A DNA stretch of 64,000 bases from Azohydromonas sp. (GTDB lineage Bacteria > Pseudomonadota > Gammaproteobacteria > Burkholderiales > Burkholderiaceae_C). The notes beneath the pieces were generated by a model. That model searched no databases and had not been told where the DNA came from. It saw only the letters and a program-made list of their open reading frames with translations. Positions 1,839 through 36,013 of the stretch are shown piece after piece (within the stretch, counting starts at the first letter, position 1; the number at the start of each line of letters is the position of its first letter). The stretch is taken from positions 51,745-115,744 of the forward strand of contig NZ_DAOKZA010000004.1 in the NCBI RefSeq assembly GCF_035325925.1. The letters run 5' to 3'. Position numbers and translations under genes: made by a program.

Positions 1839-1881
1839 TTATAGGGAGCCGTGCCGCCGGGGGCGGCGGCGTGCGCGGCAC

Positions 1882-5019: not shown

Positions 5020-5162
5020 CGGTTCTCCTTGGGAACGTGCCGATCCGGCGGCCACGGTGGCCGGCATGTGCGAAGGGGTCTGACCGACGAGCCGCCGATT
5101 CGCCCGTCGCCCTCGGTCGCCGGGCGGCCCGCGGCGCGCCCGCAACGAATCGGCGGACCGGG

Positions 5163-5741: not shown

Positions 5742-5846
5742 GCGAGCGAGCTCCTGGGTTGGATGCAGTGGCGGTGCGGCCGCGTCGCGATCGCGCCGGC
5801 TCGGCGGACGAACGGCGTGGCGGGTTGCGGCCGGACGGTGTGCGGG

Positions 5847-6485: not shown

Positions 6486-6636
6486 ATGGGACGCCGAGAT
6501 CCGAGGACCTGAGCCGGCGCAACGTGCCGGACCGACCCCGGGGCTTCGACGATGCCCGCCGACTCGGCGGGCGTGGAGGCAATGTCGTCGGCGTCGCCTG
6601 ACGGATCACCTACCGATCGGGGTGCGCCCCGCGATC

Positions 6637-6647
6637 GGGGGGGGGGG
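6637..6647. repeat. Homopolymeric G11 tract (C11 on the minus strand)
   Basis: Read directly: gcgatc + 11 g + cgacgg. It lies 152 nt upstream of the PEP-CTERM gene start (6485) and 29 nt downstream of the regulator stop (6676). Confidence 0.9.
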
Positions 6648-6675
6648 CGACGGGTCGGCGGCGTGCGTCGAAGTC

Positions 6676-9585: not shown

Positions 9586-9628
9586 CGGGGCGATGATGCC
9601 TCAGCCCGGGCATCCGGCCGGGGCGGGG

Positions 9629-10468: not shown

Positions 10469-10579
10469 CGCCGCGCACGCGCGAACGCGTCGAGCGACCG
10501 CCGCGAATCCGGCCGCGCCGGTTCGCTGGCGGCGCCGCGTCGAGGGCGAGCGCCGAAGGTGCGACGGCGGCGGGCCCCG

Positions 10580-19280: not shown

Positions 19281-19792
19281 CCGTGCTGGACGCCCGCGCC
19301 GAACATCCGGTGCGCCTCACGCTGAACGGCCGCGAGCGCTGCGCCAGTGCGTCGCCGCGCCGCCTGCTGTCGGACTTCCTGCGCCATGACCTCGGCGCCA
19401 CCGGCACCCACGTCGGCTGCGAACACGGCGTGTGCGGCGCCTGCACGGTACAGATCGACGGCATCGCACAGCGGTCCTGCCTGACGCTGGCGGTGCAGGT
19501 CGACGGCCGTGAGGTTCGCACTGTCGAAGGCCTGGCCGGCCCCGATGCAGTGCTGCAGGACCTGCAGGCCGCCTTCAAGCGCCGCCATGCCCTGCAATGC
19601 GGCTTCTGCACGCCGGGCATCCTGATGTCCTGCGCGGACTGGCTCGGGCGCATCGCCGGCCGTGGCGTGCCGGAGGAGGAAAAGGTGCGCGAGATGCTGT
19701 CCGGGCATCTGTGCCGCTGCACCGGCTACACGCCCATCGTCGCCGCGGTGATGGACGTGGCGCGTGCACGCTGGGAGGCGTCGCATGCTTGA
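19277..19792 (+). CDS. Mo-hydroxylase (2Fe-2S)-binding small (CoxS-like) subunit
   Basis: Both cluster motifs are present: GCEHGVCGACTV and QCGFCTPG...CRCTGY. There is an ATGA overlap with the FAD subunit gene. Confidence 0.92.
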   Translation: MTVLDARAEHPVRLTLNGRERCASASPRRLLSDFLRHDLGATGTHVGCEHGVCGACTVQIDGIAQRSCLTLAVQVDGREVRTVEGLAGPDAVLQDLQAAFKRRHALQCGFCTPGILMSCADWLGRIAGRGVPEEEKVREMLSGHLCRCTGYTPIVAAVMDVARARWEASHA

Positions 19793-21332: not shown

Positions 21333-21343
21333 AGCGAGACCCC

Positions 21344-22156
21344 ATGAACCTCCGAGAACTCCATCACCCCGCCGCTACGCTGCCGGCCGCCACCGACGGC
21401 TTCCGCCTCGAGCTGAAGCCCGAGCAGGAGCGCGCCGACATCGTGCTCGACCGCCCGCCCTTCAACGTGGTCAGCATGCTGGCGCGCGAGCAGTTGCGCA
21501 TCGCCTTCGAGGCGCTGGATGCCGACGAGCGCATCCGCGTGATCGTGCTGCGCGGCGCCGGCGAGCATTTCTCCAGCGGCGGCGACATCAAGGGCTTCCT
21601 CGAGGCCACGCCCGAACACGTCAGCAAGCTGGCCTGGAACGTGGCGGCGCCGGCGCGATGCAGCAAGCCGGTCATCGCGGCCGCGCGCGGCTACTGCTTC
21701 GGTGTCGGCTTCGAGCTGTCGCTGGCTTGCGACTTCCGCCTCGCCTCCGAAACCGCGCTGTACGCGCTGCCCGAGCAGAAGCTGGGCCAGATCCCCGGCT
21801 CGGGCGGCAGCGCGCGGCTGCAGAAGATGGTCGGCATCACCCGCACGAAGGACATCGTGATGCGCTCGCGCCGCATCGGCGGCCGCCAGGCCTTCGACTG
21901 GGGCGTGGCCACCGACTGCGTGCCCGATGCCGAGCTCGAGCGGACGACGGACGCGCTGGTCGACGAACTGCGCGCTTTCTCGCCGATCGCGCAGCGCACC
22001 GCCAAGAAGCTGCTCAACGACACCGAGGACTCGCCGCTGTCCATCGCCATCGAGCTGGAAGGGCACTGCTATTCGCGCCTGCGCAGCTCGGAGGATTTCC
22101 GCGAGGGCGTCGAGGCCTTCCACGCCAAGCGCAGGCCCGGCTTCGTCGGCCGCTGA
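21344..22156 (+). CDS. Enoyl-CoA hydratase/isomerase (crotonase) family protein (HmfE-like position)
   Basis: VIVLRGAGEHFSSGGDIKGF and GYCFGVGFELSLACDFRLA are crotonase-fold signatures. Confidence 0.9.
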   Translation: MNLRELHHPAATLPAATDGFRLELKPEQERADIVLDRPPFNVVSMLAREQLRIAFEALDADERIRVIVLRGAGEHFSSGGDIKGFLEATPEHVSKLAWNVAAPARCSKPVIAAARGYCFGVGFELSLACDFRLASETALYALPEQKLGQIPGSGGSARLQKMVGITRTKDIVMRSRRIGGRQAFDWGVATDCVPDAELERTTDALVDELRAFSPIAQRTAKKLLNDTEDSPLSIAIELEGHCYSRLRSSEDFREGVEAFHAKRRPGFVGR

Positions 22157-22192
22157 TCCATCCCGTTCCCCAACCCCCACAGGAGACAAGAC

Positions 22193-23368
22193 ATGAACAA
22201 GTACATCGTCGCGGCCGGCGCACTGGCCGTGGCCACCGTTGGCAGCAGCCCCGCCTTCGCCCAGTCCGGCCCGATCCGGGTTGGCGTCGTCACGCCGCTG
22301 TCGGGCACCTATGCGGGCATCGGCCAGCAGGTGAAGTGGGGTCTGGACCTGGCCGCCGCACAGATCAACGCGGCCGGTGGTGTGATGGGTCGCAAGCTCG
22401 AGCTGGTCTATGAAGACGAGGAGGCGAATCCGGCCGTGGCGACACAGAAGGCCGAGAAGCTGTTCCAGGTCGGCAAGGTCGACTTCCTCACCGGCACGGT
22501 GAATTCGGGCTCCACCCTCGCCGTGGGCCAGGTGGCCGAGCGCAACAACCGGCTGATCGCCACCACGGTGTCCTTCGCCGACTCGATCACCGCCGAGAAG
22601 TGCAGCCCCAACGTGTTCCGCGTGAACGCGCGCGCGGGCATGCAGAGCGCCGCGCTGGCCGACTGGATGGCCTCAACGCAGAAGAACGCCAACGTGTTCT
22701 ACCTGGGGCCCGACTACGAGATGGGCCGCAGCACCGTGGCGGCGTTCAAGGCGGCGGCCGAAGGCAAGGGCGCGAAGACGGTCGGCGAGGTGTTCGCGCC
22801 GCTGGACAACAAGGACTACTCGCCGTACTTCGGGCAGATCCGCGGCGCCCGCCCGACGGTGATCTACACCTCCGTGGCCGGCAACGACACGGTGCGGCTG
22901 TTCACCCAGATGGCCGAGTTCGGCGTCAACCGCAACGTGCAGGTGGTGGGCGCCTCGGGCACGGTGACGGGCCAGAATCTCGCCGCCATTGGCAAGGCGG
23001 CTGACGGTTTCGTCACCGGTGTCGGCTACTCGCCCAGCATCGATTCGGCGGAGAACCGCAGGTTCGTCGCCGACTTCGAGGCCGCGAACAAGGCCAAGCC
23101 CGACCTGTACGGCGCCGACTCCTACGGCGTGCTGTTCTTCTACAAGGCGGCGGTGGAGAAGGCCAGGAGCACCGACACCGACAAGGTGCGCGAGGCGATG
23201 CGCGGCCTGCAGTGGGCCACGCCGCAGGGCACGAAGACCCTGCGCGCCGGCGACCACCAGGCGATGCAGGACATGTACGCCGTGAAGTTGGAGGGCGGCC
23301 AGTTCCGCATCGTCGGCAAGGTGGCGGCCGAGGCGGCGATCGGCCCCGACGCCTGCGCCCGCTTCTGA
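22193..23368 (+). CDS. ABC transporter periplasmic substrate-binding protein (Liv/branched-chain type fold)
   Basis: The signal peptide is MNKYIVAAGALAVATVGSSPAFA, followed by IRVGVVTPLSGTYAGIGQQ. Confidence 0.9.
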   Translation: MNKYIVAAGALAVATVGSSPAFAQSGPIRVGVVTPLSGTYAGIGQQVKWGLDLAAAQINAAGGVMGRKLELVYEDEEANPAVATQKAEKLFQVGKVDFLTGTVNSGSTLAVGQVAERNNRLIATTVSFADSITAEKCSPNVFRVNARAGMQSAALADWMASTQKNANVFYLGPDYEMGRSTVAAFKAAAEGKGAKTVGEVFAPLDNKDYSPYFGQIRGARPTVIYTSVAGNDTVRLFTQMAEFGVNRNVQVVGASGTVTGQNLAAIGKAADGFVTGVGYSPSIDSAENRRFVADFEAANKAKPDLYGADSYGVLFFYKAAVEKARSTDTDKVREAMRGLQWATPQGTKTLRAGDHQAMQDMYAVKLEGGQFRIVGKVAAEAAIGPDACARF

Positions 23369-23378
23369 GGGCGCTGAC

Positions 23379-24263
23379 ATGGTCGACTGGATGCAGTTCG
23401 TGCTGGCGCCCCAGGTCGTCAACGGCCTGTCCATCGGCGTGGCGGTGGTGTTGATGGCGCTCGGGCTGACGATCATCTTCGGCCTGCTCGACGTCATCAA
23501 CATGGCGCACGGCGAGTTCTATGCGATCGGCGCCTATGCGGCGCTGGCGCTCATCGGCGTGGGCCTGCCTTTCTGGTGGGCGCTCGTGCTGACGCCACCG
23601 CTGATGGCGGTGGTGGGCTACGCGACGGAGCGCGCGCTGATACAGCGCGTGTTCCACAGCAAGGACCGCCACACGCTGACGCTGCTGTTGACCTTCGGCA
23701 TTGCCGTCATCCTGGAGGACACGTTGAAGATCGTCTTCGGCGCCAACCCGCTGCGCATCGAGCAACCTATCTCCGGGGCCACCGAGATGTTCGGGCTGTT
23801 CTTTCCCAACTACCGCCTGTTCCTGATGGCGGTGGGCACGGCGGTGATCGCCGCGGTGTGGCTGGTGGTGTTCCGGACGCGGCTTGGCGCGATGGTGCGC
23901 GCTGCCGCCTTCGACCGCCACATGGCGGCCTCGCTGGGCGTGCCGGTCAGCGTGGTCTACGCGGGCACCTTTGCCTTCGGCGTGGCGTTGGCCGGCCTGT
24001 CGGGTGTGCTGCTGGCGCCGATCTACTCGGTGTTCCCGACCATGGGCCGCGACTTCGTGCTCATCGCGTTCAGCGTCGTGATCATCGGCGGCATGGGCTC
24101 GGTCAAGGGCGCCGTCATCGCCGGCCTGCTGCTGACCCAGGTGCAGTCGATCTCCAGCCTGCTCATCTCGCCGGTTTGGAGCGATCCGCTGCTGTTCGGA
24201 ATCATGGTGCTGGTGCTGATGTGGCGCCCGCACGGCTTGTTCGGGAGGCTCGGTCATGGGTGA
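23379..24263 (+). CDS. Branched-chain-type ABC permease (LivH-like)
   Basis: Polytopic membrane protein; INMAHGEFYAIGAY is a LivH-family signature. Confidence 0.9.
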   Translation: MVDWMQFVLAPQVVNGLSIGVAVVLMALGLTIIFGLLDVINMAHGEFYAIGAYAALALIGVGLPFWWALVLTPPLMAVVGYATERALIQRVFHSKDRHTLTLLLTFGIAVILEDTLKIVFGANPLRIEQPISGATEMFGLFFPNYRLFLMAVGTAVIAAVWLVVFRTRLGAMVRAAAFDRHMAASLGVPVSVVYAGTFAFGVALAGLSGVLLAPIYSVFPTMGRDFVLIAFSVVIIGGMGSVKGAVIAGLLLTQVQSISSLLISPVWSDPLLFGIMVLVLMWRPHGLFGRLGHG

Positions 24264-25269
24264 GGTTCTGACGATCGGCAGCGCTGCGGCGCCGGCCGCT
24301 CCCAGGCGACGCTCGGGCGTTCGTTGGCTGAGCTACGCGTTCTTCGCGATGGCGCTGCTGTTCGCGGCGGTGGCGGCGGCCCTCGGCGATGTCTTCTTCT
24401 TCCGCCTGGCCACCGAGTCGCTGATCTTTGGCGGCCTCGCGCTCAGCGTGGACCTCCTGCTCGGGCGCACCGGCTTGCTGCCGCTGGGGCAGGCGCTGTT
24501 CTTCGGCTTCGGCGCCTACGTCTCGGCGCTGACGCTCAAGCACCTGGCGCCCTCGCTGCCGCTGGCGCTGGCGGTGGTGCTGCTAAGTGGCACGGTGGTC
24601 GGGCTGGTCGGCGGGTTGATCGCCATCCGCGCCAAGGGCGTGTACTTCGCGCTGATCAGCTTCGGCCTTGCACAGGTGGTGAGCAAGATCGTGTTCAACA
24701 CGCGCGAACTGGGTGCATCGGACGGGTTGATCGGCGTGCCGGCGCCGGTCGTCAGCCTCGGCGTGGCCAGCCTGGACACCGCCCACGCGCCGAGCTTCTT
24801 CCTGCTCGTGCTGGCCGGCATGGCCGTGCTGCTGGCCCTGCTGATGCGCCTGATGGACACGCCCTTCGGCCGCCAGCTCGACGCCGTTCGCACCAACGAG
24901 CAGCGCCTGGCCTTCCTGGGCTTCGACCCGTGGCGCTACAAGCTCGCGGCCTTCGTGCTCGCGGCCGACATCGCTGCCCTCAGCGGCGCGCTCTACCCGA
25001 TGCTGCGCGGCTTCGTCTCGCCGGAGCTGATGTTCTTCCAGGTCTCGGGCAACGCGGTGATCAACGTGATCGTCGGCGGCACGGGCACCTTCGTCGGTGC
25101 GCTGTACGGCTCGGCGCTGCTCACGGTACTCAAGTCCGTGGTCGGCTCCTTCACCGCCCACCATGCCATCGTGATCGGCGCCTTGTTCGTCGTCTCGGTG
25201 ATCTTCTTTCCCAAGGGTCTGGTGGGCTACCTCGCGCCGGCCCTGGAGCGCCTGTGGAGCCGCCGATGA
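24256..25269 (+). CDS. Branched-chain-type ABC permease (LivM-like)
   Basis: Polytopic membrane protein that overlaps the upstream gene by 8 nt. GLLPLGQALFFGFGAY is present. Confidence 0.9.
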   Translation: MGEVLTIGSAAAPAAPRRRSGVRWLSYAFFAMALLFAAVAAALGDVFFFRLATESLIFGGLALSVDLLLGRTGLLPLGQALFFGFGAYVSALTLKHLAPSLPLALAVVLLSGTVVGLVGGLIAIRAKGVYFALISFGLAQVVSKIVFNTRELGASDGLIGVPAPVVSLGVASLDTAHAPSFFLLVLAGMAVLLALLMRLMDTPFGRQLDAVRTNEQRLAFLGFDPWRYKLAAFVLAADIAALSGALYPMLRGFVSPELMFFQVSGNAVINVIVGGTGTFVGALYGSALLTVLKSVVGSFTAHHAIVIGALFVVSVIFFPKGLVGYLAPALERLWSRR

Positions 25270-26042
25270 AGCCGATCACCGACGACGCGATCCTTCAGGT
25301 GCGTGGCCTTTCCGTGCGCTTCGGCGCACTGGTGGCCGTGGACGGCGTCGGCTTCGACGCGCAGCGAGGTCACATCACGGCCGTGATCGGGCCCAACGGT
25401 GCCGGCAAGAGCAGCCTGTTCAACCTGATCAGCGGCGCGATCCGGCCCAGCGCCGGCCAGGTGCTGCTCGAGGGCCGCGACGTGACGGGCTCGAGCCCTG
25501 ACCGCATGCTCGCCGCCGGGCTGTCGCGATCGTTCCAGATCACCAACCTGTTCTTCGAGCTGCCGGTGCGCGAGAACCTGCGCCTGGCCGCGCAGTTTGT
25601 CGAATGCGGGCGCGGGCTGCTGCGGCATGTCTCGGCCAGCCGTGCCGCCCAGTGCCGCGTCGACGAGCTGATCGAGCGCTTCTCGCTGCAATCACGGGCC
25701 GACGAACTCGCAGGCTTTCTCTCGCATGGTGAGCAGCGCCGTCTGGAGATCGCCGTGGCGCTGGCGGCGCGGCCGCGCGTGCTGCTGCTCGACGAGCCGA
25801 CGCAAGGCATGAGCCACGCCGACACGCAGGACACCGCGGCGTTGATTCGCGGCCTGGTCGACGACGGTCTGTCGATCCTGCTGGTGGAGCACGACGTGGA
25901 TCTGGTGATGGACCTGTCGGACCACGTGGTCGTTATGCACCAGGGCGCGAAGCTGGCCGAAGGCCGGCCGCAGGCGGTGCGCGCCGACCCGGCGGTGCAG
26001 GCGGCGTATTTCGGCGAAGCGCAGGAGCCGGCCCATGCTTGA
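25266..26042 (+). CDS. ABC transporter ATP-binding protein (LivG-like)
   Basis: Walker A GPNGAGKSS, signature LSHGEQRRLEIA and Walker B LLLDEP are present. There is an ATGA overlap with the permease gene. Confidence 0.9.
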   Translation: MKPITDDAILQVRGLSVRFGALVAVDGVGFDAQRGHITAVIGPNGAGKSSLFNLISGAIRPSAGQVLLEGRDVTGSSPDRMLAAGLSRSFQITNLFFELPVRENLRLAAQFVECGRGLLRHVSASRAAQCRVDELIERFSLQSRADELAGFLSHGEQRRLEIAVALAARPRVLLLDEPTQGMSHADTQDTAALIRGLVDDGLSILLVEHDVDLVMDLSDHVVVMHQGAKLAEGRPQAVRADPAVQAAYFGEAQEPAHA

Positions 26043-26742
26043 GTTGAGTGACGTTCACACCCACTACGGCCTCAGCCATGTGCTGCAGGGCGTCAGCCTG
26101 CACGTCGCGCCGGGCGAGGTGGTCGGCCTGTTCGGTCGCAATGGCGTGGGGAAGACCACGGTGATGAAGACCATCGCCGGCTGGGTGGCGCCGAGCCGCG
26201 GGTCGGTGCAACTGGAAGGGCAAGCGATTGGCGGCCTGCCGCCGGAGCGGATCTGCCGGCGCGGCATCGGCTTCGTCCCCGAAGACCGGCGGATCTTTCC
26301 CGGCCTGACCGTGCAGGAGAACCTGGTGCTCGGCTTCATGCAGAGCCCCGGCCGCAGCCGGGCCCAAGACCGACGCCAACTCGAAGCGATCTACACGCGC
26401 TTTCCGCGGCTGGGGGAGCGGCGCGGTCAGATGGGCACGACGCTGTCCGGTGGCGAACAGCAGATGCTGGCGATGGCGCGTGTGCTCGTCGGGGCGCCGC
26501 GTCTGCTGCTGATCGACGAGCCGACCGAGGGGCTGGCGCCGAAGATCGTTGATGAGATCTTTGCGCTGATGGAAGGGCTGCGCCGAGACGGCATCCCCAT
26601 CCTGCTGGTGGAGCAGAACATGCACCGCGCCATCGGTCTGGTACAGCGCTTCTACGTGCTGGAGCGCGGCGCCATCGTGCTCGAAGGTGATGGTGGCAAC
26701 ACCGCTGATCGCGAGGCGCTGATGCGGCAGCTGGCTGTCTGA
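26035..26742 (+). CDS. ABC transporter ATP-binding protein (LivF-like)
   Basis: Walker A GRNGVGKTT, signature LSGGEQQMLAMA and Walker B LLIDEP are present. Confidence 0.9.
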   Translation: MLELSDVHTHYGLSHVLQGVSLHVAPGEVVGLFGRNGVGKTTVMKTIAGWVAPSRGSVQLEGQAIGGLPPERICRRGIGFVPEDRRIFPGLTVQENLVLGFMQSPGRSRAQDRRQLEAIYTRFPRLGERRGQMGTTLSGGEQQMLAMARVLVGAPRLLLIDEPTEGLAPKIVDEIFALMEGLRRDGIPILLVEQNMHRAIGLVQRFYVLERGAIVLEGDGGNTADREALMRQLAV

Positions 26743-27321: not shown

Positions 27322-27717
27322 TCACGCCACGAGCGTCATGCCCGCCGCCTTCGCCGCACCGGTGTCAAAGGTCATCGTCGCCCGGCACCCATGCGCCTGC
27401 GCGATGCGCTCGATCAGGCAGTCCGCGAAGTCGGCGCCGCCCCTCGCAAAGCGCCGTTGCGCCTGCAGCACGAGGTCAGCGCGGTCGACCACGATCTCCT
27501 TGCTGCGCAGCAGCAGGTCCAGCGACTCGACCAGCTGGTCCCGGTTCAGCCCGTAGCTGGACGACAGCACCCAGACGAGCTCGACGACCGCCACCAGCGG
27601 CACGAAGCCGGGTTGATCGCTGGTCAGGCTCTCGATCAGGCGCGTGGCGTTCGGCGACTGCTTCGGGTCGTCCTGCATGATGTAGCGCACCAGGACGTTG
27701 GTATCGAGCCCGATCAT
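27322..27717 (-). CDS. vapC: PIN-domain toxin VapC
   Basis: MIGLDTNVLVRYIMQDD (first acidic residue), later acidic residues, and a C-terminal CLIERIA...TFD are present. There is an ATGA overlap with the antitoxin gene. Confidence 0.9.
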   Translation of the reverse strand: MIGLDTNVLVRYIMQDDPKQSPNATRLIESLTSDQPGFVPLVAVVELVWVLSSSYGLNRDQLVESLDLLLRSKEIVVDRADLVLQAQRRFARGGADFADCLIERIAQAHGCRATMTFDTGAAKAAGMTLVA

Positions 27718-27956
27718 CGCGACCGTGTGGCCTGCGCCGCGATGGCTGCGTTCATCTCCTCGATGGAGACGGTGCCCTTGGGCTTGCCGAAGCGCCCCTT
27801 GAGCTCGCGCACCGAGCGCGTGGCGGCGATCACCTCGAAGCGCCCGGGCTCGATCTCGACGAACTCGACCCGGTCACCGGCCTCGACGTTGAGCGCGCGG
27901 CGCACGTCGACCGGGATCGTGATCTGGCCCTTGGTGGTCAGTGTGGCGGTCGACAC
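27714..27956 (-). CDS. vapB: AbrB/MazE/SpoVT-type antitoxin VapB
   Basis: LTTKGQITIPVDVRRALNVEAGDRVEF is the swapped-hairpin AbrB fold signature. The start is GTG, preceded by GGGAGAAG. Confidence 0.88.
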   Translation of the reverse strand: MSTATLTTKGQITIPVDVRRALNVEAGDRVEFVEIEPGRFEVIAATRSVRELKGRFGKPKGTVSIEEMNAAIAAQATRSR

Positions 27957-27989: not shown

Positions 27990-28131
27990 CGGTCTGGACG
28001 CCAGGTTGAGGCGAGGAGGGCGGCTTCGCGTACGGCCTCAATTGGCGCGCCTGCGAGGGGGATCAGGAGGGGACCGTGGCCAGGAGGATGGCCTCGAAGG
28101 CCGCGCCATCCTTGGAAGAAGAAGTCACCCC

Positions 28132-28209
28132 CAGGTACTGCGCCATCATCGGCGTGTGCGCGGCGAGGCCGGCCTTGAGCAGTTCGGCCGTGGTGATCGG
28201 AGCAGTCAT
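28132..28209 (-). pseudogene. Fragment of a second mutS gene (first 26 codons only)
   Basis: Manual translation from ATG at 28209 gives MTAPITTAELLKAGLAAHTPMMAQYL. The resident MutS begins [26 protein letters not shown]. About 35 nt upstream of the ATG also resemble the resident mutS leader. Similarity stops abruptly after the YL codons. Confidence 0.7.
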
Positions 28210-28603
28210 CTCGGCCGCCATGGTAGGCCACGGCCGACAGGGTGCCGGCGGGCGAGGCCCACCCTCCGGCTGCGCTCGAGTCGCTCGGTGAGGGCGTGCG
28301 AGCGCTTCACCAGTGCCTGCGACCCCTTCCGGATCCTCGCCGACCGGCGGCGAAGGTTCGGTCTGCGCTGTGAAGCGGTTGAGCGCCGGCGAGCGCCGGT
28401 TTTCAGTCGCGGCGCATCAGGGGCCGGCGACCGTAGAGTTCTGCGACAGTCCGCCGCCGAGATCGCCGATCGAGACACGCCGGCGGTACCCGGCCATCAG
28501 CAGTCATTGGCGAACGGCAGCTTCCTGGCATCCCGAGGCGATCGCAAGCCGATCACCGGAACGGGGTGACGCACGGGTGGGCACCCCCAGGCAGGCGGCA
28601 CTC

Positions 28604-29207
28604 TGAGCGAATGATGCGCCGCGGATGTCGCAGGCCGCGGCGCGCCTGGTGGACCATGTCATCTCCCAGGTGCCGGTGCGGCCGTGGGTGCTGTCGCTGC
28701 CGATTCCGCTGCGCGTGCTGCTCGCCGCGCAGCCCGAGCGGGTCACGCCGGTGCTGGAGGTGGTGCAGCGCGTGCTCACGCGGTATTTGCTGGCGGCTGC
28801 CAGTCTTGGGAGCGACGAAGGTCACGGTGGCGCGATCAAGCCAATCCGGCGCTTCGGCTCCGCGGCCAACTTGATCGTCCACCTGCACTGGCTGGTGCGG
28901 GACGGCATGTACCGGGACCATCATCGCCCGCCTCATGAAGATGCTCACGCGCCGCGGTGTGCTGGTCGAAGACATGGGCCAGACCGACCTGAGCGCGCCG
29001 GATGCCCACGGCGAGCAGGCGCGCACGCTGCGCCCGCTGCAGGCCGCGGCCATCACTTGCCGCATCGCCTTCGGCCCCCGCGCCGCACAGAAGGTGCCGA
29101 CGCTCAGGGGCGCGACGCCGCGCGAGAGCGCAGCGCACCGACCCCTGTGCGCCGACATCGACGACTTCAGCCTGCACGCCGCGGTGCGGGTCGAGGCACG
29201 GCGAGCC
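28604..29207 (+). mobile_element. IS91-family transposase remnant lacking both ends, with an internal deletion and frameshift
   Basis: Frame 1 reads AARLVDHVISQVPVRPWVLSLPIPLRVLLAAQPERV...IRRFGSAANLIVHLHWLVRDGMYR. Frame 2, from about 28918, reads IIARLMKMLTRRGVLVED...LRPLQAAAITCRIAFGPRAAQKV...LCADIDDFSLHAAVRV. These blocks match remembered IS91-family (zinc-binding plus Y2-type) transposases. No intact ORF, inverted repeat or ori/ter ends were identified. Confidence 0.75.
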
Positions 29208-29211
29208 GCCC

Positions 29212-29500
29212 CTCGAGGAAGGCGCGTGCGCAGACGCCGGGCGCCGCTGGAAGAAGACGAGGTCGCCGCCGAGGCCTTCGCTGCAGGCGCGGAAGAAGTG
29301 GTTGAAGCCGACCTCGGACAGGTCGGCCGCGCTCGCGTGGCTCGCGATGGGGCCGCCGAGCTCGCCGTCGGCCTGGTTCGCCTTGACGACCATCGCGAGT
29401 GCGTTCCAGCGCATCAGCGCGGCGAGCCGCTCCTCGATCGCGAGGTCGCCGGGGAAGGGCGGCTGCGCAGCGACCGGGATCGTGTTGACGCAGGGCGTTC
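29212..29500 (-). pseudogene. Internal fragment of pyruvate dehydrogenase E1 (AceE), frameshifted
   Basis: Minus-strand translation gives VNTIPVAAQPPFPGDLAIEERLAALMRWNALAMVVKANQADGELGGPIASHASAADLSEVGFNHFFRA..GGDLVFFQ. After a frameshift it continues PGVCARAFLEGRL. This is colinear with roughly residues 60-170 of AceE. It abuts the IS91 remnant at about 29208-29211. Confidence 0.7.
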
Positions 29501-29786
29501 CGATCGGCGGCGTCCAGCCGACGCCGAGCGCCCGACCGGCACCGGGTCGTTCCCAGGTCTGGACTGGGCCTGCCCTTGGCCGTCCGAGATTGACGTTCCC
29601 CCCAGCCCCCAGGGTCCACTGGAGAGGCGCACACCGCGCCCACGGGCGGGATGGCGCCGGTGTCGGGCGGTCTTGCGCGCATGCCGCCGGGATCCGCCGA
29701 ACTCCGGGGTGCTTTGCATGGCCACGGCAACTCGCGCCGGCGCGCGGTGTTCCGGCAGGCCCACGGCCGTGGCGCCGCCGTGCCGC

Positions 29787-30794
29787 TCAGTTCACCGTTT
29801 CCGCGACCTGCAGCAACTCCAGCGGTGGTGTCATCTGCAGCCGGCGCGCCAGCGGCATGTGGATGACGATCGCGAAGCGTGTCATGCGCGCCACCGGCAG
29901 TTCGCCGGCCTTCGCGCCGGCGAGGATCTTCTCGGCCTGCGCGCCGGCCAGGCGGCCGATCTCGGCGTAGCGCGCCGCCACCGAGAGCAGCGCGTGACCG
30001 TCGCGCACGACCGACTCGTAAGGGCTCAGCACCGGCAGGCCCAGCGCGATGGCCGCGTTGCCCAGCAGGTCGGCGTTGTCGCGCAGGAACGACGACGACC
30101 CCAGGTAGACCACGTCGACGCCGGCGTGCTTCAGCGCGTTGAGTTGCGGCGCGATGTCCGACGGTCGCGGGCGCCCGTCGGCGGCCAGCGGCAGTTCGCG
30201 CGCGACGAGTTCGAAGCCCTGCGCGCCCACCAGCGCTGCCAGTTCGTCGCGCTTCATCAGCGAGTTCTTCTCGTCCGCGTGGTACAGCAGCCCCAGCCGA
30301 CGCAGCCCCGGCCGGTAGGCGCGCAGCGTCTGCAGATTCACCAGTTCCGGCACGCGGTTGTAGGTGCCGGTCAGGTCCGCACGGCCAGGCCTGTCCAGGC
30401 TGCGCACCAGCCCGGCGCCGACGGGATCGGCGACGATCATGAAGACCTTCGGAATCTCCGGCGCCCATCCCGGCTGGCCGACCTCGTCCAGGCGGCCGGC
30501 CATGCCCAGCGTGACGTTGGTGCCGTAGGTGAGCACGAGGTCGACGCGGCTTTCGCGCGCCTCGGCCAGGAAGCCGGGTAAGGCGCTGCGCTGCCGATTC
30601 GCGTCGCGCAGCACGAAGCGCACCGGCACGCGCCGCTCGTTCAGGTAGGCCTGAAAGGCCTGGCAGGCTTCCTCGCAGCCGGTCCAGGTGACGATCATCA
30701 CCGTCTTCGGTCCAGCGGCCGGCGCCGCCACGCCCAGCGCCATCAGCGCCAGTCCGGCCAGCCAGTTGCGCCATCGCATCGCGGTGTCTCTCAT
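29787..30794 (-). CDS. Periplasmic ABC-type substrate-binding protein (COG2984/BMP-like family)
   Basis: It forms the C-terminal part of the 1082-aa track ORF. The signal peptide is MRDTAMRWRNWLAGLALMALGVAAPAAG. Family-typical stretches are VDLVLTYGTN, VFMIVADPVGAGLV and DVVYLGSSSF. The ATG overlaps the upstream stop (ATGA). Confidence 0.85.
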   Translation of the reverse strand: MRDTAMRWRNWLAGLALMALGVAAPAAGPKTVMIVTWTGCEEACQAFQAYLNERRVPVRFVLRDANRQRSALPGFLAEARESRVDLVLTYGTNVTLGMAGRLDEVGQPGWAPEIPKVFMIVADPVGAGLVRSLDRPGRADLTGTYNRVPELVNLQTLRAYRPGLRRLGLLYHADEKNSLMKRDELAALVGAQGFELVARELPLAADGRPRPSDIAPQLNALKHAGVDVVYLGSSSFLRDNADLLGNAAIALGLPVLSPYESVVRDGHALLSVAARYAEIGRLAGAQAEKILAGAKAGELPVARMTRFAIVIHMPLARRLQMTPPLELLQVAETVN

Positions 30795-32776
30795 GCGGGC
30801 CGGGCGCGCCGCAGCTTCTCGACGAGCAGAAAGCCGGCCAGCCCCAGCAGCGCGAGGATAGCAAGCGCGCGCAGGCTGACCGCGGCGCCGGCGAACGGCA
30901 GCGCGAAGGCGCAGGCCGCGAGGCCGGCGATCGCGCCCAGCCGCTCGGCCAGCCGCATCGGCCCGACCGCCGATCGGCCTGGCTCGATGCGCTGCGCCAG
31001 CACGACCAGCGGCGCACGCATCAGCGTGTGGCCGACGCCCAGCGCGGCGACGGCGCCGACCACCGACCAGTAGCCCGCCCAGGACGCCAGCGCCAGGATC
31101 GCCAGACCCGACAGCATCGCACCGCCGACGGCCAGGGCACGCGGACCGGCAGCGCCGTGCGACAGCGCCGTCACCGCCGGACCCAGCACGACGACTGCCA
31201 GGTAGTACAGCATCACGACCCGTGCCACCTCGGCCGGCCCCGAACCGACGGCCGTCAGCATCAGCGGCGTCAGGTACCAGACGACGACGGCCGTCGCCGC
31301 GCTCATCGGCACCGCCAGCCCCAGCAGCAGCGCCAGGGTGCGCGTGCCGGTCGATGCCGAGGGTGCAGGCGCCGCGCCCGCGAGAGCGACCCCCACCGCA
31401 TCGCCGGCGGCGCCGCGCATCATCAGCAGGCCGACGACGCCCGCTGCGGCGGCGATCAGCGCTCCTGTCGCGAGTGCTGCGCCGTAGCCCAGGCGCCCGG
31501 CGACCACCCCGCCCAGCGCCGCGCCGCAGAACACCCCGCCGTAGACGACCGCGACGAAGGCGCCGGCAGCGCGTGCGCCGCCCTGGTCGGCCGCGGCCCG
31601 TAGCGCGTACTCCTGGCAGGCGATGGTCGCGCTGGCGTAGCACAGCGCCATCAGCCCGCGCCACAGCGTGACCTCGGCCACGTGGTCGGCCGCGGCGAGC
31701 CCGAGCAGGCACAGCACGGTCGGTGGCACCGAGAACGTGAACAGCCGCCGTGCGCCGAAGCGGCGGACCAGCGCGCCGCCGAAGGCGGTCAGCAGCGCGA
31801 TCGCGCCGAGATAGGCGACCAGCGGCGCGGCCGCGGCGAGTTCCGGGCCCAGCCAGGCCGGCCGCGCCAGCGAGCGCGTGTAGACCGGCAGGAACGAGAC
31901 CGCGATTTCGGTGCCGACGACGAAGACAAACAGCGCGAGCCGGATGTCGCCGACATCGGACAGCCGCAGCAGCCGTGGCTGCCCCGCCGCGACGCGCACC
32001 TCCCATTGCCGTTGCAGCGCCTCGCGCGTGGCGGCGCCGAGCGCGGCGAAACGTGCCGCGAGGTCCTGGGCATGATCGTTGAGCCTTTCCGCGGCGCGCA
32101 CCAGTCCCACCGGCCCGCCGGGCTCGACACGATGGCGGAAGTCGCCTTCGCGCTGCGCCTCGAGCAGGCGCGACACGCGCGCGAGTGGCCGGTCCACGGC
32201 GCGCGCCGCCAGCAGCAGCAGCGTGAGCTCCAGCGCGAGCAGCGCCGCGGCCAGCCCGATCACCATCACGTCGAGCAGCACTTCGCGCAGCCGCGTGCGC
32301 ACGAAAGCCGGGCTGAGCTCGACGACGACCTCTCCGACCAGGCGGTTGCCGTCGAGGATGGACAGGGCGTACGCACCGCGTGGTGCGGTCGCCGCCGTCG
32401 CATCGGGTGTCGGCATCGCGAGTCGATCGGCGTCGGGCCGTTGACGCGCTGCGGTCGCGACGACGGCACCGTCGGCCGCGCGCACCACGATGCGGTCGAC
32501 CTCCCCGAAGCTCTGCAGCGTCTGCGCCAGGTAGCCGTCGAGGCCGGCCATGCCGCCGAGCGGCACGCCGAGATCGAGCGCGCGCTGCAGTTCGGCGCGC
32601 ACGATGGCGCCGATCAGCCGCGTGCGCTTGGACAGCTCCGGCGCCACCGCGCGCTCGAAGGCGTCGACCGCATGCACGCCGACGGCCAGCACCGCACCGC
32701 CGAGCAGCGCGAGCAGCAGTGCGACCAGGCGCAGCCGCAGGCCGCGCGCGATGCCGTCGCCGGCCCATGCCGTCAC
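30791..32776 (-). CDS. Fusion protein: N-terminal two-TM periplasmic sensor-like module, HAMP domain, and 12-TM MFS transporter
   Basis: The layout is TM1, an extracytoplasmic segment of about 150 aa, and TM2. HAMP follows (VDRPLARVSRLLEAQREGDFRHRVEPGGPVGLVRAAERLNDHAQDL), then a coiled linker. About 400 aa of MFS-like helices complete the protein. A GTG start overlaps the upstream stop (GTGA). Confidence 0.8.
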   Translation of the reverse strand: MTAWAGDGIARGLRLRLVALLLALLGGAVLAVGVHAVDAFERAVAPELSKRTRLIGAIVRAELQRALDLGVPLGGMAGLDGYLAQTLQSFGEVDRIVVRAADGAVVATAARQRPDADRLAMPTPDATAATAPRGAYALSILDGNRLVGEVVVELSPAFVRTRLREVLLDVMVIGLAAALLALELTLLLLAARAVDRPLARVSRLLEAQREGDFRHRVEPGGPVGLVRAAERLNDHAQDLAARFAALGAATREALQRQWEVRVAAGQPRLLRLSDVGDIRLALFVFVVGTEIAVSFLPVYTRSLARPAWLGPELAAAAPLVAYLGAIALLTAFGGALVRRFGARRLFTFSVPPTVLCLLGLAAADHVAEVTLWRGLMALCYASATIACQEYALRAAADQGGARAAGAFVAVVYGGVFCGAALGGVVAGRLGYGAALATGALIAAAAGVVGLLMMRGAAGDAVGVALAGAAPAPSASTGTRTLALLLGLAVPMSAATAVVVWYLTPLMLTAVGSGPAEVARVVMLYYLAVVVLGPAVTALSHGAAGPRALAVGGAMLSGLAILALASWAGYWSVVGAVAALGVGHTLMRAPLVVLAQRIEPGRSAVGPMRLAERLGAIAGLAACAFALPFAGAAVSLRALAILALLGLAGFLLVEKLRRARPA

Positions 32777-33546
32777 GACGGCCGGTCCCGCGTCGCGGCC
32801 AGCTGCTGTCCGGCCGCGCGGTAGCGCGCGGCCGCGGCCTCCAGCCGTTCGCGCAGGGCGAGCGCATCGGGTGCCTGCGCCGGCGCGTCGGCGCCGGCGG
32901 CACGGCGCCAGGCGCCACGTTCGAAGTCACGGCAGCCGGTATCGATGGCGTCGAACTGTCGGATGACCGCGCGCAGTCCCCAGCGCAGCAGCAGCGCCCC
33001 GAGGGCCCCGACGAGCAGCAGCGCCAGCAGCGCACCCAGCACGACGGCGGCGAACATCGCGCGCACCTGCGTCAGGTGGCCGTCGCGCGGATAGACGATG
33101 AGGATGCCGCCGGCGCTGCCGCCGTCGCCGCCGACGATGTCGACGCTGCCCAGGAAGCCTTCGTGGCTGTCGAGGTACCAGGGCGCGCCGCGCGCGGCCG
33201 CGCGCGCCGCGACGGCCTGCGGCGGGATCGTCGCGGGCCCGCCCGCCGCCGTGGAGTGGACGATGCGGCCGTCGCTGTCGAACACGTGCAGCGCGACGAT
33301 GTCCTCGTCGCTCTGGCGCGCGCGCTCGAGCAGCGCCGTCGCGTTGCGCACGCTGGCCAGCGGCAGGCCCAGCCGCACCGCAGAGGCGAACGGTGCCATC
33401 GTGCGGTCGGCGAGCACGACCAGGCGCTCGCCGACCAGCGTGGCGTGGATGCTGCCGAACTGCAGCGTGGCGAGGCCGACGAAGATGCCCAGCACCACCA
33501 GGGCGACGATCGTCACGGTGCCCCAGATGCGCCAGAGGAGAGCCAT
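32773..33546 (-). CDS. Two-TM membrane protein with an extracytoplasmic sensor-like domain, paralogous in layout to the N-terminus of the HAMP-MFS protein
   Basis: MALLWRIWGTVTIVALVVLGIFVGLATL (TM1) is followed by a ~140 aa loop containing GLPLASVRNATALLERARQSDEDIVALHVFDSDGRIVHS, then TM2. The track ORF starts at GTG 33582. No good Shine-Dalgarno sequence precedes either start. Confidence 0.6.
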   Translation of the reverse strand: MALLWRIWGTVTIVALVVLGIFVGLATLQFGSIHATLVGERLVVLADRTMAPFASAVRLGLPLASVRNATALLERARQSDEDIVALHVFDSDGRIVHSTAAGGPATIPPQAVAARAAARGAPWYLDSHEGFLGSVDIVGGDGGSAGGILIVYPRDGHLTQVRAMFAAVVLGALLALLLVGALGALLLRWGLRAVIRQFDAIDTGCRDFERGAWRRAAGADAPAQAPDALALRERLEAAAARYRAAGQQLAATRDRPS

Positions 33547-33793
33547 CGTGGAAGGGCTGTGCCAGCAGCGCAGGCCGCGCACGATCGGCGGGCCGCGTCG
33601 GGTCGGGCCAGCATAGTGGCCGCAGCGCCGGATGGTGACCGGGCGGCGCCAGGGATTACCCCAGGGCGTCTGCGTGACCTGGACGGCCCGCGTACCGGCC
33701 GGACATCGGCGACCAAGCCGCAGACGCCGGTCGACGTTCGCCGAGCCAGCGCCCCGAGGTGCGCATCCATGCCTGCCGGCGCCGGGTGAGGGA

Positions 33794-34285
33794 TCAGACC
33801 TGCCGCGTCAGCCTGATCAGGTTCAGCGCCCGTGCGGCGAAGTAGCCGCTCAGCACGCCGTAGACGGCGGAAAGGCCGACGACGAACAGCGTCGTCGAGA
33901 TGACGGCGGCGTGCATGGCGTTCATGACGGCGTAGACGTACTTCGCGAAGAAGATGGCCATGATCACGGCCAGCGGGACCCAGCTGCCGGGAACGAAATA
34001 CGTCTTCGCGTGGGCGTCGTAGCGCACCCGCTCGTCGCGAAACCGGGCGTACCCGACGAGCGCGGCCACGGCCAGTGCAGCGGCCCACGCGGCCACCGGC
34101 AGGGGCGCGAAGCCGAAGCTCGACTGAACGCCGGCCAGCGACAGCGCGATCATGCCGGCGGGAAGCGCCAGCGCGGGAACCCTGCGCACGTTGCGCGTCC
34201 TCGCCTGCATGAGACCGAACGCGAGCAAGCCGGCGAACAGCGCGAACACCCAGGTCGGCGTGCGGGAAAGGATCTGGCCGATCAA
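33794..34285 (-). CDS. Small integral membrane protein (about 4-5 TM), unknown function
   Basis: A TTG start is preceded by AGGAGAA. The sequence is hydrophobic throughout (WVFALFAGLLAFGLM, VPLAVIMAIFFAKYVYAVM). It lies downstream of the MerR gene on the same strand. Confidence 0.7.
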   Translation of the reverse strand: MIGQILSRTPTWVFALFAGLLAFGLMQARTRNVRRVPALALPAGMIALSLAGVQSSFGFAPLPVAAWAAALAVAALVGYARFRDERVRYDAHAKTYFVPGSWVPLAVIMAIFFAKYVYAVMNAMHAAVISTTLFVVGLSAVYGVLSGYFAARALNLIRLTRQV

Positions 34286-34361: not shown

Positions 34362-34817
34362 TCATGCGCCGCTTCGGGGCGGCCTGGACGATGCGCCTGT
34401 TCGGGGCGCGGGTCGCCGCTGCCGCTTCTCCAGTGCGCCGGCGGCGGCGGCCTTCAGCAGTCGCTGGAACGACGGGCAGGCCGCATGGCTGGTCGCGGGG
34501 CAGGCCGCCGCGTGCCGCAGTCCTTCGATCATCGCCCTCAGGCGCTTGACCATGCGCTCGAGCTCGTCGGCCTTCGCCGAGAGCATGGCGCGGTCGATGT
34601 TCGGCGCGCCGCCCGGGGTGAACATGACCCGGATCTCGTCCAGCGAGAAGCCGGCCGCCTGCCCCAGCGCGATGAGCGCCAGCTGATCGAGCACCGACGG
34701 CGCGAACTTGCGGCGCGCGCCCTCCGACGCCAGCGAGCGGATCAGCCCCTTGCGCTCGTAGTAGCGCAGCGCCGAAGCGGCCACGCCCGACTTCCTGGCA
34801 ACTTCGGCGATGTCCAT
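34362..34817 (-). CDS. MerR-family transcriptional regulator with a CueR-like C-x7-C loop
   Basis: The N-terminal HTH is MDIAEVARKSGVAASALRYYERKGLI. A dimerisation helix follows, then ACPATSHAACP, with two Cys separated by 7 residues. Confidence 0.9.
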   Translation of the reverse strand: MDIAEVARKSGVAASALRYYERKGLIRSLASEGARRKFAPSVLDQLALIALGQAAGFSLDEIRVMFTPGGAPNIDRAMLSAKADELERMVKRLRAMIEGLRHAAACPATSHAACPSFQRLLKAAAAGALEKRQRRPAPRTGASSRPPRSGA

Positions 34818-34826
34818 CGAAACCGC

Positions 34827-34857
34827 TTGACTTCAAGTTGACTTCAACTTCTATCAT
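34827..34857 (+). promoter_or_regulatory. MerR-type promoter: -35 TTGACT, 19-bp spacer containing a perfect dyad, -10 TATCAT
   Basis: TTGACT spans 34827-34832 and TATCAT spans 34852-34857. The 19-nt spacer holds AAGTTGA-ct-TCAACTT (34835-34850). It is located between the MerR gene and the divergent DUF2938 gene. Confidence 0.6.
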
Positions 34858-34901
34858 GCCTGTGACATGTCATCCGGTCAACGCATCTTGAGGAGATCCC
34901 C

Positions 34902-35396
34902 ATGCCTGCCTTTCCGCTCGTCGCCCACATCGCGCTGGTCGGCATCGGCGCGACGGCGCTGATGGACCTGTGGCTGTGGCTGCTGGCGCGCCTGGGGGTG
35001 CCGACCACCGGGTTCGCGATGGTGGGCCGCTGGGTCGGGCACGTCGCACGCGGCACGATCGCCCACGCGGCGATCTCGAAGGCCGCGCCGATCCCCTTCG
35101 AGCTCGGCCTGGGCTGGCTGACCCACTACCTCATCGGCATCGCCTTCGCGGCGGCGCTGGTCGGTCTGCAGGGCGCCGCGTGGCTGCATCAGCCGACGGC
35201 GCTGCCGGCCCTGGCGTTCGGAGCCGCCACCGTGGTCGCACCCTGGTTCGTGATGCAGCCGGCCATGGGCGCCGGCTTCCTGGCCCGCAAGACACCGGCG
35301 CCGCTGAAGAACGGCCTGCGCAACCTGGCCAACCACGCGGTCTTCGGCGCCGGCCTGTACGTCGCGGCGGCCGCGCTGGCGCGAGTCGCCGCGTGA
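34902..35396 (+). CDS. DUF2938-family membrane protein
   Basis: ATG is preceded by GAGGAG. GATALMDLWLWLLARLG and GRWVGH are typical of DUF2938 as I recall it. Confidence 0.8.
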   Translation: MPAFPLVAHIALVGIGATALMDLWLWLLARLGVPTTGFAMVGRWVGHVARGTIAHAAISKAAPIPFELGLGWLTHYLIGIAFAAALVGLQGAAWLHQPTALPALAFGAATVVAPWFVMQPAMGAGFLARKTPAPLKNGLRNLANHAVFGAGLYVAAAALARVAA

Positions 35397-35443
35397 GCCG
35401 CTCGCATCCCTCGTCGTCCCTCGACCGTCCCGGAGACTCCCTC

Positions 35444-36013
35444 ATGAGCAAGCTCGCCATCGTCTATCACAGCGCCCACGGGCACACCGAGTTCATCGCC
35501 CGCCAGGTGCATGTCGGCACCTCGGATGTCGTCGGCGTCGATGCCCGCCTGGTCCCGGCGGAAGACATCGCGCGCCGGCCCGACGACCTCGTCGCGTACG
35601 ACGGTTTCATCTTCGGCTCGCCGACCTACCTGGGCGGCGTCAGCGCGCCGTTCAAGAACTTCATGGACTCGACGGGCCGCCTCTGGCGCACCCAGCGACT
35701 CAAGGGCAAGCTCGCCGCCGGGTTCACCGTGTCGTCGCTGCCCTCGGGGGACAAGCTGTCGACCTTGCTGTCGATGTTCGTCTTCGGCATGCAGCACGGC
35801 ATGCTGTGGGTCGGCAACCCCATCGTGCCCGAGCAGCACAGCGGCGTGCCGTACGAAGAGGCGGCCAACCGGCTGGGCTCGTGGTCGGGGCTGATGGCCC
35901 AGGCCGGGCACGCCGCACCCGCGGACGCGTTCGTGCCGGGCGACGTCAAGACCGCACGCCTGTTCGGCCGGCATGTCGCCCAAAGCCTGGAGCGCGTGCT
36001 CGTCCCGGCTTGA
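35444..36013 (+). CDS. Flavodoxin-like NAD(P)H:quinone oxidoreductase (WrbA-type fold)
   Basis: MSKLAIVYHSAHGHTEFIA and FIFGSPTYLGGVSAPFKNFMDST are flavodoxin-like FMN-binding signatures. Confidence 0.88.
   Translation: MSKLAIVYHSAHGHTEFIARQVHVGTSDVVGVDARLVPAEDIARRPDDLVAYDGFIFGSPTYLGGVSAPFKNFMDSTGRLWRTQRLKGKLAAGFTVSSLPSGDKLSTLLSMFVFGMQHGMLWVGNPIVPEQHSGVPYEEAANRLGSWSGLMAQAGHAAPADAFVPGDVKTARLFGRHVAQSLERVLVPA

Follow-up and report, generated by a model that had tools for sequence, protein, structure and literature searches.

A three-gene cassette that joins a receptor-type sensor–HAMP module to an MFS permease, with a paralogous sensor protein and an orphan binding protein

We analyzed a 64,000-nt stretch of DNA from Azohydromonas sp. 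(contig NZ_DAOKZA010000004.1, positions 51,745 to 115,744; hereafter, the window), which has a GC content of ~74% and in which three minus-strand open reading frames (ORFs) at 29787-33582, here named g1, g2, and g3, are conspicuous. The central gene, g2, encodes a complete, DHA1-like MFS domain of 12 helices fused to a receptor-type input module, and this fusion is old. Upstream lies g1, which encodes a two-transmembrane (TM) protein that is a distant paralogue of the input module of g2, and downstream lies g3, which encodes a secreted solute-binding protein; the three genes are one co-inherited unit. The original prediction for this DNA had described a translationally coupled trio around a sensor-HAMP-MFS fusion, accompanied by a sensor paralogue and a binding protein of the COG2984 type, and this architecture was borne out. 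The domains are known and their combination is uncharacterized, and it points toward secondary transport coupled to a receptor and a binding protein. Our preferred reading, to which we give a little under an even chance, is that the trio may be a self-contained tripartite system, namely an MFS permease that is coupled to a binding protein, gated by HAMP, and equipped with a pseudo-dimeric receptor made of g1 and g2.

The fusion in g2 is genuine. Six independent contigs that come from different sequencing runs all encode an identical protein of 661 aa, with the gene order and the neighbors unchanged. A word-indexed search further returned full-length homologues (~660 aa) in more than 120 clusters at 47-99% identity and ~98% coverage, all of them labelled merely as “MFS transporter.” Together, these two results exclude an assembly or frameshift artefact, the caveat that had been attached to the fusion when it was proposed. 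When the N-terminal 275 residues of g2 were used as a profile in an exhaustive search, 1,133 clusters (at 50% identity) matched at E ≤ 1e-3 and 406 at E ≤ 1e-10. MFS_1 was present in all 78 of the matching clusters that were scanned for domains. No kinase, cyclase, or phosphodiesterase domain was found in any of these 78 relatives of the sensor module, and HisKA/DHp and HATPase_c were absent from g1, g2, and all 78 relatives scanned.

Gene order was compared across 32 loci from one-genome-per-species contigs, together with four metagenomic places. Across the 32 loci, g1, g2, and g3 follow one another in this order wherever the flank allows, with g3 inverted in one only. The loci are distributed over Betaproteobacteria (Burkholderiaceae, Rubrivivax, Piscinibacter, and Thauera), many Alphaproteobacteria, Gammaproteobacteria (Marinobacterium and Competibacteraceae), and one Geobacteraceae metagenome-assembled genome (MAG), and the order is kept among them down to 28% identity. 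The same trio also accompanies members that are ~23-30% identical to the first representative of the family, some of which carry a HAMP domain visible to Pfam. Every locus with an upstream flank has g1, and all loci with a downstream flank have g3 beside g2, fusions included; g3 is the most conserved protein of the trio. g1 and g2 share the 4-bp NTGA overlap in 21 of 25 related loci without a fusion, and a 4-bp overlap between g2 and g3 is found in 11 of 28 related loci, with the remainder mostly within ~30 bp. No fourth conserved gene was found when all flanking ORFs of the 32 loci were clustered, as each recurrent cluster proved to be a shadow ORF within the cassette.

In some lineages, g1 and g2 have become a single gene. 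In-frame fusions of the two account for at least 25 representative proteins of 890-970 aa, and the gene for one of these again has a binding-protein gene directly after it. Natural single chains with no stop between the g1 and g2 parts were seen in a Roseovarius MAG (locus L022), Marinobacterium lacunae AK27 (L024), and Albidovulum marisflavi WL0002 (L026), and in L024, the binding-protein gene is inverted. The suggestion that g1 and g3 are functional partners of g2 is strongly reinforced by this invariant synteny and by the g1-g2 gene fusions.

We then considered the input module of g2. Hydropathy gave N-terminal hydrophobic segments at aa 12-40 and 162-195, and many further segments from residue 269. 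AlphaFold2 (AF2) models were available for g2, both of them monomers, with predicted local distance difference test scores (pLDDT) of 84 (predicted TM-score of 0.79) and 87. In these, the first TM helix continues into a long periplasmic helix, followed by a short helix and four strands, an arrangement that we assign to a predicted single Cache/PDC-like fold; a periplasmic loop at aa 111-134 is variable and modelled at low confidence. The top Foldseek match of the module was a full-length WalK model, aligned over 282 columns across the TM-sensor-TM-HAMP order (E 4.4e-6), after which came chemoreceptor models and then the isolated PDC/Cache domains of CdgS9 (LapD-like), WalK, KinD, and DcuS. These last sensor-domain matches lie at E 2e-3 to 0.3, the g2 model having four strands only, and the periplasmic domain of CdgS9 compares with that of g2 at a TM-score of 0.67. 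The sCache_3_2 family was matched by 12 of 68 diverse relatives (best E 2.4e-9), the periplasmic domain of g2 itself had no Pfam match, and NCBIfam returned no HAMP for g2, only weak matches to sensor-kinase models. The motif “AFDRAVEPEL..RTRLIG” and residues D169, E183, P197, and G211-x-F213 are 84-100% conserved, and the sensor helix, the second TM helix (TM2), and the HAMP region are among the best-conserved parts of g2.

Two of these residues, D169 and E183, lie within TM2 of the sensor, where they are invariant in 27 close relatives and conserved at 97% and 96%, respectively, in the 68 distant ones. So well conserved within the membrane, these acidic residues could form a salt bridge with the permease or g1, or could sense protons; more speculatively, their partners may be conserved arginines in the permease or in g1. 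We also note weak, recurrent matches to Robl_LC7 (Roadblock/LC7) in the periplasmic alpha/beta domains of relatives of both g1 and g2. Foldseek additionally gave low-probability matches to Ragulator and MglB, and the sole match of a g1-family profile in the PDB was a dynein light chain of the Roadblock/LC7 fold (E 1.6). Though it was seen independently in g1 and g2, this likeness is probably a generic fold resemblance.

The segment that follows TM2 is homologous to HAMP domains at the level of its family. With a profile of the diverse N-termini, the only PDB matches outside the MFS part were HAMP proteins, namely the poly-HAMP kinase 9trk (E 4.8e-10), Aer2 (3.2e-5), and NarQ (9.5e-4), all at profile positions 186-260. 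The sole PDB match of the close-family profile was the HAMP of Aer2 (E 0.027), and the NarQ match of the family profiles covers the TM2-HAMP region. Pfam HAMP was detected in 20 of the 68 diverse relatives (best E 3.6e-10) and in only 2 of 20 close homologues (best E 0.0025), and in one relative, P0175, the Pfam domain (aa 209-250) aligns to aa 193-234 of g2. The AF2 models place here a helix at 156-209, running from TM2 into the first amphipathic helix (AS1), a connector at 210-222, and a helix at 223-244 (pLDDT 89-93). The HAMP signatures P197, G211, and F213 are all present in g2 and are 84-97% conserved over the diverse relatives. HAMP homology of this region is solid at the level of the family, and the domain in g2 is divergent, not canonical, as the original prediction had called it. 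That wording was overstated, as Pfam finds no HAMP in g2, and the claim of significance survives in part: it fails for the single g2 sequence and stands for the family, on the relatives detected by Pfam, the family profiles, and the helix-connector-helix of the models.

The remainder of g2 is a complete MFS permease, as had been proposed. MFS_1 (PF07690) matches aa 280-599 with 42.3 bits against a cut-off of 33.4 bits, and AF2 yields twelve helices within aa 275-658 with a central loop at 453-473. The nearest structures in Foldseek were the DHA1 proton antiporters NorA, VMAT1/2, MdfA, and SotB (target-normalised TM-score 0.75-0.83), and the best PDB matches of the family profile were NorA (E 1.5e-21), VMAT, VAChT, and EmrB. 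Identity of the MFS domain to DHA1 structures is just 13-17%, and therefore neither substrate nor direction of transport can be transferred from DHA1 members. Over the 68 relatives, R373 of motif B in helix 4 is 94% conserved, G418/G422/G423 of helix 5 are 90-99% conserved and form a GxxxGG resembling motif C, and E290 of helix 1 is 79% conserved; R279 before helix 1, R519 in helix 8, and R608/E611/R612 are conserved as well. At the place of motif A, between helices 2 and 3, stands FGGALVRRFGARR (aa 332-344), in which the Gly and the Arg pair of the motif are retained and its Asp is missing. Given the full MFS fold and the conserved motif residues, the domain looks like a working transporter.

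Hydrophobic segments at aa 1-35 and 158-195 of g1, with a periplasmic stretch of ~125 aa between them, support the proposed two-TM layout, shared with the N-terminus of g2. The order in g1 is a first TM helix, a Cache-like periplasmic domain, a second TM helix, and a cytoplasmic helix-loop-helix tail of ~65 aa. The similarity of the two proteins had been called recognizable, which was too strong for the pair of sequences (BLASTP E 0.043, marginal); it became convincing only when profile was compared with profile: hhalign of the g1 family profile against the g2 N-terminal profile gave E 4.5e-7 at a probability of 92.6% over 180 columns, spanning the periplasmic domain, TM2, and the first HAMP helix. 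g1 is a distant, output-less paralogue of the sensor module in g2. No Pfam family covers it and its annotation is “hypothetical protein” everywhere, with weak dCache_1 matches in 2 of 16 members. A pattern in its tail (“..F..I....FE...WR.AAG,” a variable loop, then “L..LL..AE..Y”) was read by eye from the alignment and is non-statistical.

As for g3, its match to ABC_sub_bind (PF04392, COG2984) reached 68.4 bits against a cut-off of 25.9, which bears out the COG2984-type binding protein proposed for the third gene. The N-terminus, MRWRNWLAGLALMALGVAAPAAG, is a typical signal peptide at ~aa 1-27, as read by eye, and the PDB relatives of the protein are 6hni, 3lft, and 3lkv. Characterized members of PF04392 serve as binding proteins in the uptake of Trp, Tyr, and Phe (PMC10443332, PMC6816091). 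The TrpX equivalog model scored 77 bits on g3, far below its 390-bit cut-off, and therefore no ligand was carried over to g3; likewise, a prediction of the ligand from the CD0873, SP1069, and VC_1101 structures was tried and dropped, as the published description names the side-chain selectivity residues and not those that bind the backbone, and no sound transfer was possible. No ABC transporter genes were found in or beside the cassette in the 32 genome loci or the four metagenomic places, and none of the DctP/TctC, DctQ/DctM, and TctB/TctA Pfam families was found in g1, g2, or g3.

Coordinates of the cassette are collected in Table 1. Third-position GC is very high in all three ORFs, at 0.90-0.93 for g1 and g2, as in the real genes of this genome, and the GTGA and ATGA overlaps predicted between the three genes are both present. 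The ATG at 33546 is most likely the start of g1, in preference to the upstream GTG, because the alignment of the long form with homologues and g1-g2 fusions begins only at residue 13 and because independent gene calls on other assemblies give 257 aa, which is also the mode of the family. Searches around the operon for RNA elements, promoters, and terminators gave nothing above chance.

Table 1. Features of the g1-g2-g3 cassette, in positions of the window
Feature	Position	Strand	Description
g1	32773-33546	-	257 aa; alternative upstream GTG at 33582
g2	30791-32776	-	661 aa; sensor-HAMP-MFS fusion
g3	29787-30794	-	335 aa; secreted PF04392 solute-binding protein
GTGA overlap, g1 stop/g2 start	32773-32776	-	translational coupling
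ATGA overlap, g2 stop/g3 start	30791-30794	-	
g2 sensor TM1	32666-32740	-	~aa 13-37, predicted from AF2 and hydropathy
g2 periplasmic domain	32282-32665	-	~aa 38-165; long helix, short helix, and four-stranded sheet predicted by AF2
g2 sensor TM2	32201-32281	-	~aa 166-192; carries conserved D169 and E183
g2 divergent HAMP	32042-32200	-	~aa 193-245; AS1 with P197, connector with G211-D-F213, second amphipathic helix (AS2) at 223-244
g2 linker	31955-32041	-	aa 246-274; helix 248-258, conserved motif “LRLSD..DIR” into MFS helix 1
g2 MFS domain	30803-31954	-	aa 275-658; 12 helices, DHA1-like

The neighbors of the cassette in the window are unrelated to it: MerR, DUF6622, DUF2938, a flavodoxin-like protein, a VapBC pair, and a transposase remnant. 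At 34362-36013, a MerR-family regulator is divergent from genes for a DUF2938 membrane protein and an FMN-reductase/flavodoxin-like protein, and a DUF6622 membrane protein (33794-34285) is encoded between this module and g1; none of these four genes is kept beside the cassette elsewhere. On the other side, ~1.8 kb downstream of g3, overlapping VapBC-type genes (27322-27956, minus strand) encode a PIN-domain toxin and a MazE/AbrB-type antitoxin. The ~1.8 kb at ~28000-29786 holds no ORF bearing the coding signature of the genome and includes a weak Y2-type transposase match (28625-29305, E 0.0048); a mobile element that has decayed may lie here, separating the cassette from the toxin-antitoxin pair. 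Further away, plus-strand genes at 19764-26742 encode an acyl-CoA ligase and an enoyl-CoA hydratase, then an ABC importer of the Liv type, which has a dedicated Peripla_BP_6 binding protein. This is a separate catabolic uptake cluster, unrelated to g3. The ABC system lies on the opposite strand, ~3-7 kb from the cassette, and is missing at related loci; as a partner for g3, it was considered and rejected, since it has a binding protein of its own.

In distant clades, signalling genes, namely those for SpoIIE phosphatases, a Ser/Thr kinase, and GGDEF proteins, were seen in the neighborhood of the cassette. Two such loci, L035 and L036, encode at 1101-10566 a second g1-like paralogue, a 422-aa sensor-like protein, a SpoIIE phosphatase whose gene overlaps g1, and a response regulator, and L035 alone also has a response regulator-GGDEF protein. 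A HAMP-SpoIIE phosphatase is encoded downstream of the cassette in L029 and at homologous positions in L028 and L032, and a Ser/Thr kinase in L029 and L032. The idea that these neighboring phosphatases share the sensor of g2 was rejected, as the HAMP region alone is weakly similar and the periplasmic domains differ.

A mechanism can be postulated for the trio. HAMP domains act as dimeric four-helix bundles, and MFS permeases act as monomers. As the HAMP of g2 would need a bundle built from two chains and its permease would be monomeric, g1 would be the second chain. The pairing of g1 with the N-terminus of g2 would then unite two periplasmic domains and four TM helices with a heteromeric HAMP-like bundle on a single MFS domain, at a 1:1 stoichiometry that would be enforced by translational coupling or by fusion. 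The fused chains found in some lineages would be natural one-chain forms of this pseudo-dimer, and their topology would fit, with the end of g1 and the start of g2 both predicted to be cytoplasmic and 4+12 helices resulting. Ligand-loaded g3 would dock onto the paired g1/g2 periplasmic domains, and a shift of TM2 and HAMP would pass through the short linker helix to MFS helix 1, where it could open, close, or bias the rocker-switch cycle. Transport would thereby come under post-translational control of a periplasmic ligand.

Several points weigh against this tripartite reading. Pfam HAMP (PF00672) returned nothing for g2 alone at E ≤ 1, and in the g2 subfamily, the “DE(I/L)G” of AS2, present in distant relatives, has become “GGPVG,” so the usual Glu that opens AS2 is absent. 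In the tail of g1, no HAMP was found by Pfam (16 members) or by PDB profile search, and only its first helix aligns to AS1. Within the permease, H540 (~31155-31157) lies in the motif-A-like loop “LSDGRxGP” that joins helices 8 and 9, at a position that is Asp in 23 of 27 relatives. The likeness to DHA1 exporters, at 13-17% identity, fits poorly with a binding protein; binding proteins normally serve uptake. The variable signalling neighbors in distant clades could mean a signalling output, not transport, and the heterodimer, the docking of g3, and the gating are steps that we infer from sequences and models. As a separate observation, H540 may shift the conformational equilibrium of the g2 orthologue from this genome.

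Other explanations were weighed against the same evidence. It is conceivable, if unlikely, that the permease is a direct hand-over importer, an MFS analogue of the TRAP (tripartite ATP-independent periplasmic) systems and the tripartite tricarboxylate transporters (TTT). The ligand of g3 would then itself be the substrate, released into the outward-open cavity and carried inward, with the g1/g2 periplasmic domains serving mainly as a docking scaffold and the HAMP doing no more than ensure that the permease cycles with g3 docked. The gene set and its small-large fusions do mirror the Q-M fusions of TRAP systems, and g3 is without an ABC partner and is the most conserved component. The uptake of Trp, Tyr, and Phe by characterized PF04392 proteins (PMC10443332, PMC6816091) also speaks for such a role. 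However, the MFS domain comes closest to antiporters and exporters of the DHA1 group, a conserved HAMP signal-converter would be needless in a mere scaffold, and periplasmic domains of ~125 aa would keep the binding protein well above the mouth of the MFS domain. A binding-protein-dependent MFS is, moreover, without known precedent, and none was found in the searchable literature. We consider it quite unlikely that g2 is a receptor or transceptor instead of a regulated transporter. In one version, the MFS domain itself would sense or produce the output and relay it to partners, as UhpC does for UhpB and SLC5 for CbrA-type kinases; in another, LapD-like and inside-out, the state of the MFS domain would be passed through the HAMP to the periplasmic domains, which would capture or release g3. 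The resemblance of the g2 periplasmic domain to the LapD-type output domain of CdgS9 and the location of distant-clade cassettes beside HAMP-SpoIIE phosphatases, a Ser/Thr kinase, and response regulator-GGDEF proteins or histidine kinases would suit such a role, and transporter-derived sensors are an established principle (PMC9100948, PMC8871633). Yet no signalling partner is kept with the cassette, the neighbors in this window are unrelated, the MFS domain retains the motifs of a working transporter, and the SpoIIE neighbors are without the sensor module.

Very unlikely, in our judgement, is a decayed sensor kept for structural reasons (insertion, oligomerization, or localization) on an ordinary MFS efflux pump, with g1 and g3 in loosely related roles. 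A HAMP that is sub-threshold and without its AS2 Glu, the variable and low-confidence loop at aa 111-134, and a g1 without a recognizable domain might all be expected of decay, and yet the sensor helix, TM2, and HAMP are so well conserved, with motif residues at 84-100%, and gene order, overlaps, and fusions are kept across three proteobacterial classes to ~23-30% identity. To artefact or coincidence, that is, a mis-assembly or frameshift in g2, or a g3 that serves an ABC transporter encoded at another site and is adjacent by chance, we assign next to no probability, and these explanations are already refuted. An ABC transporter does lie ~3-7 kb off on the other strand, and PF04392 proteins normally serve ABC importers; against this, that system has its own Peripla_BP_6 protein and is missing at related loci, g3 follows g2 in every informative locus, and the same 661-aa g2 protein recurs in six independent assemblies and has hundreds of full-length homologues.

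The cassette can be set beside several known systems. In kinases of the WalK/NarQ/DcuS type, the input module has the same order and fold (TM, sensor, TM, HAMP), but the output there is DHp/CA and in g2 it is a 12-helix MFS domain, with no HisKA or HATPase_c; these kinases are homodimers, whereas here the second “protomer” appears to be the separate paralogue g1. The TRAP (DctPQM) and TTT (TctABC) systems likewise combine a binding protein with a small and a large membrane protein in one operon, have no ATPase, and show small-large fusions in some lineages. They share no sequence or fold kinship with the cassette, which would use an MFS rocker-switch in place of the elevator-type DctM/TctA, has a PF04392 protein in place of DctP/TctC and a Cache-type sensor paralogue as its small protein, and carries a HAMP between sensor and transporter. 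With regard to TrpXYZ-type ABC importers (SP1069, VC_1101, and CD0873), g3 is of the same PF04392 family, but the cassette is without a cognate permease or ATPase, and g3 stays at 77 of the 390 bits of the TrpX cut-off.

Among receptors, Tar with maltose-binding protein, TorS-TorT, LuxQ-LuxP, and VirA-ChvE all have a loaded binding protein that is read by a two-TM receptor, several with HAMP (established knowledge and PMC10443332). Their output is a kinase or the chemotaxis array, as opposed to a transporter here, and binding of g3 to g1/g2 is suggested by synteny only. LapD and CdgS9 have the order TM, small periplasmic PAS/PDC-like domain, TM, and HAMP, the periplasmic domain of CdgS9 superposes on that of g2, and the periplasmic domain in these proteins binds a periplasmic protein partner; LapD differs in its cytoplasmic GGDEF-EAL, which senses cyclic di-GMP, in having a protease as partner, and in having no MFS domain. 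A transporter fold and a signalling module are also joined, in one protein or as an obligate pair, in the SLC5/STAC kinases (CbrA, CrbS, and RpuS), UhpC/UhpB, and plant SPX-MFS proteins (PMC9100948, PMC8871633). CbrA and UhpC take their input through the transporter and have the kinase as output. In the SPX-MFS phosphate transporters, a sensor domain regulates the MFS domain, but this sensor lies in the cytosol and no transmembrane signalling is involved. All of these systems do without a HAMP, a Cache domain in the periplasm, and a binding protein.

Neither a HAMP-MFS fusion nor an MFS that depends on a binding protein was found described in the searchable literature, a body that leaves most subscription journals outside, so this absence is no proof; within that scope, the statement that there is no characterized example holds. 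It is possible, though we place it somewhat below an even chance, that the cassette is the first case of HAMP signalling acting directly on a transporter and that it may found a third class, after TRAP and TTT, of secondary transporters that depend on a binding protein. As part of this same joint claim, a PF04392 protein, a heteromeric Cache-type receptor, and an MFS permease would be one machine that works without ATP or gene regulation.

HAMP is known as a converter of signals to kinases, cyclases, phosphatases, and chemoreceptor arrays. If the tripartite reading is true, the same signal would gate solute transport directly, which would be a fast post-translational link between sensing outside the cell and transport across the membrane, and if g3 delivers the substrate, the MFS would join TRAP and TTT as a form of binding-protein-dependent secondary transport. 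The g1:g2 pseudo-dimer would explain, in a form open to testing, how a signalling module of the dimer type can work with a transporter that is a monomer. About 1,000 protein clusters now labelled “MFS transporter” would gain a sensor and HAMP annotation, the 257-aa “hypothetical proteins” of the g1 family would gain a proposed role, and orphan PF04392 binding proteins would gain a partner. Cultured hosts of the cassette exist in Inquilinus, Virgifigura, Microbaculum, Thauera, Marinobacterium, and Albidovulum, and the system is common and conserved enough to merit experiments.

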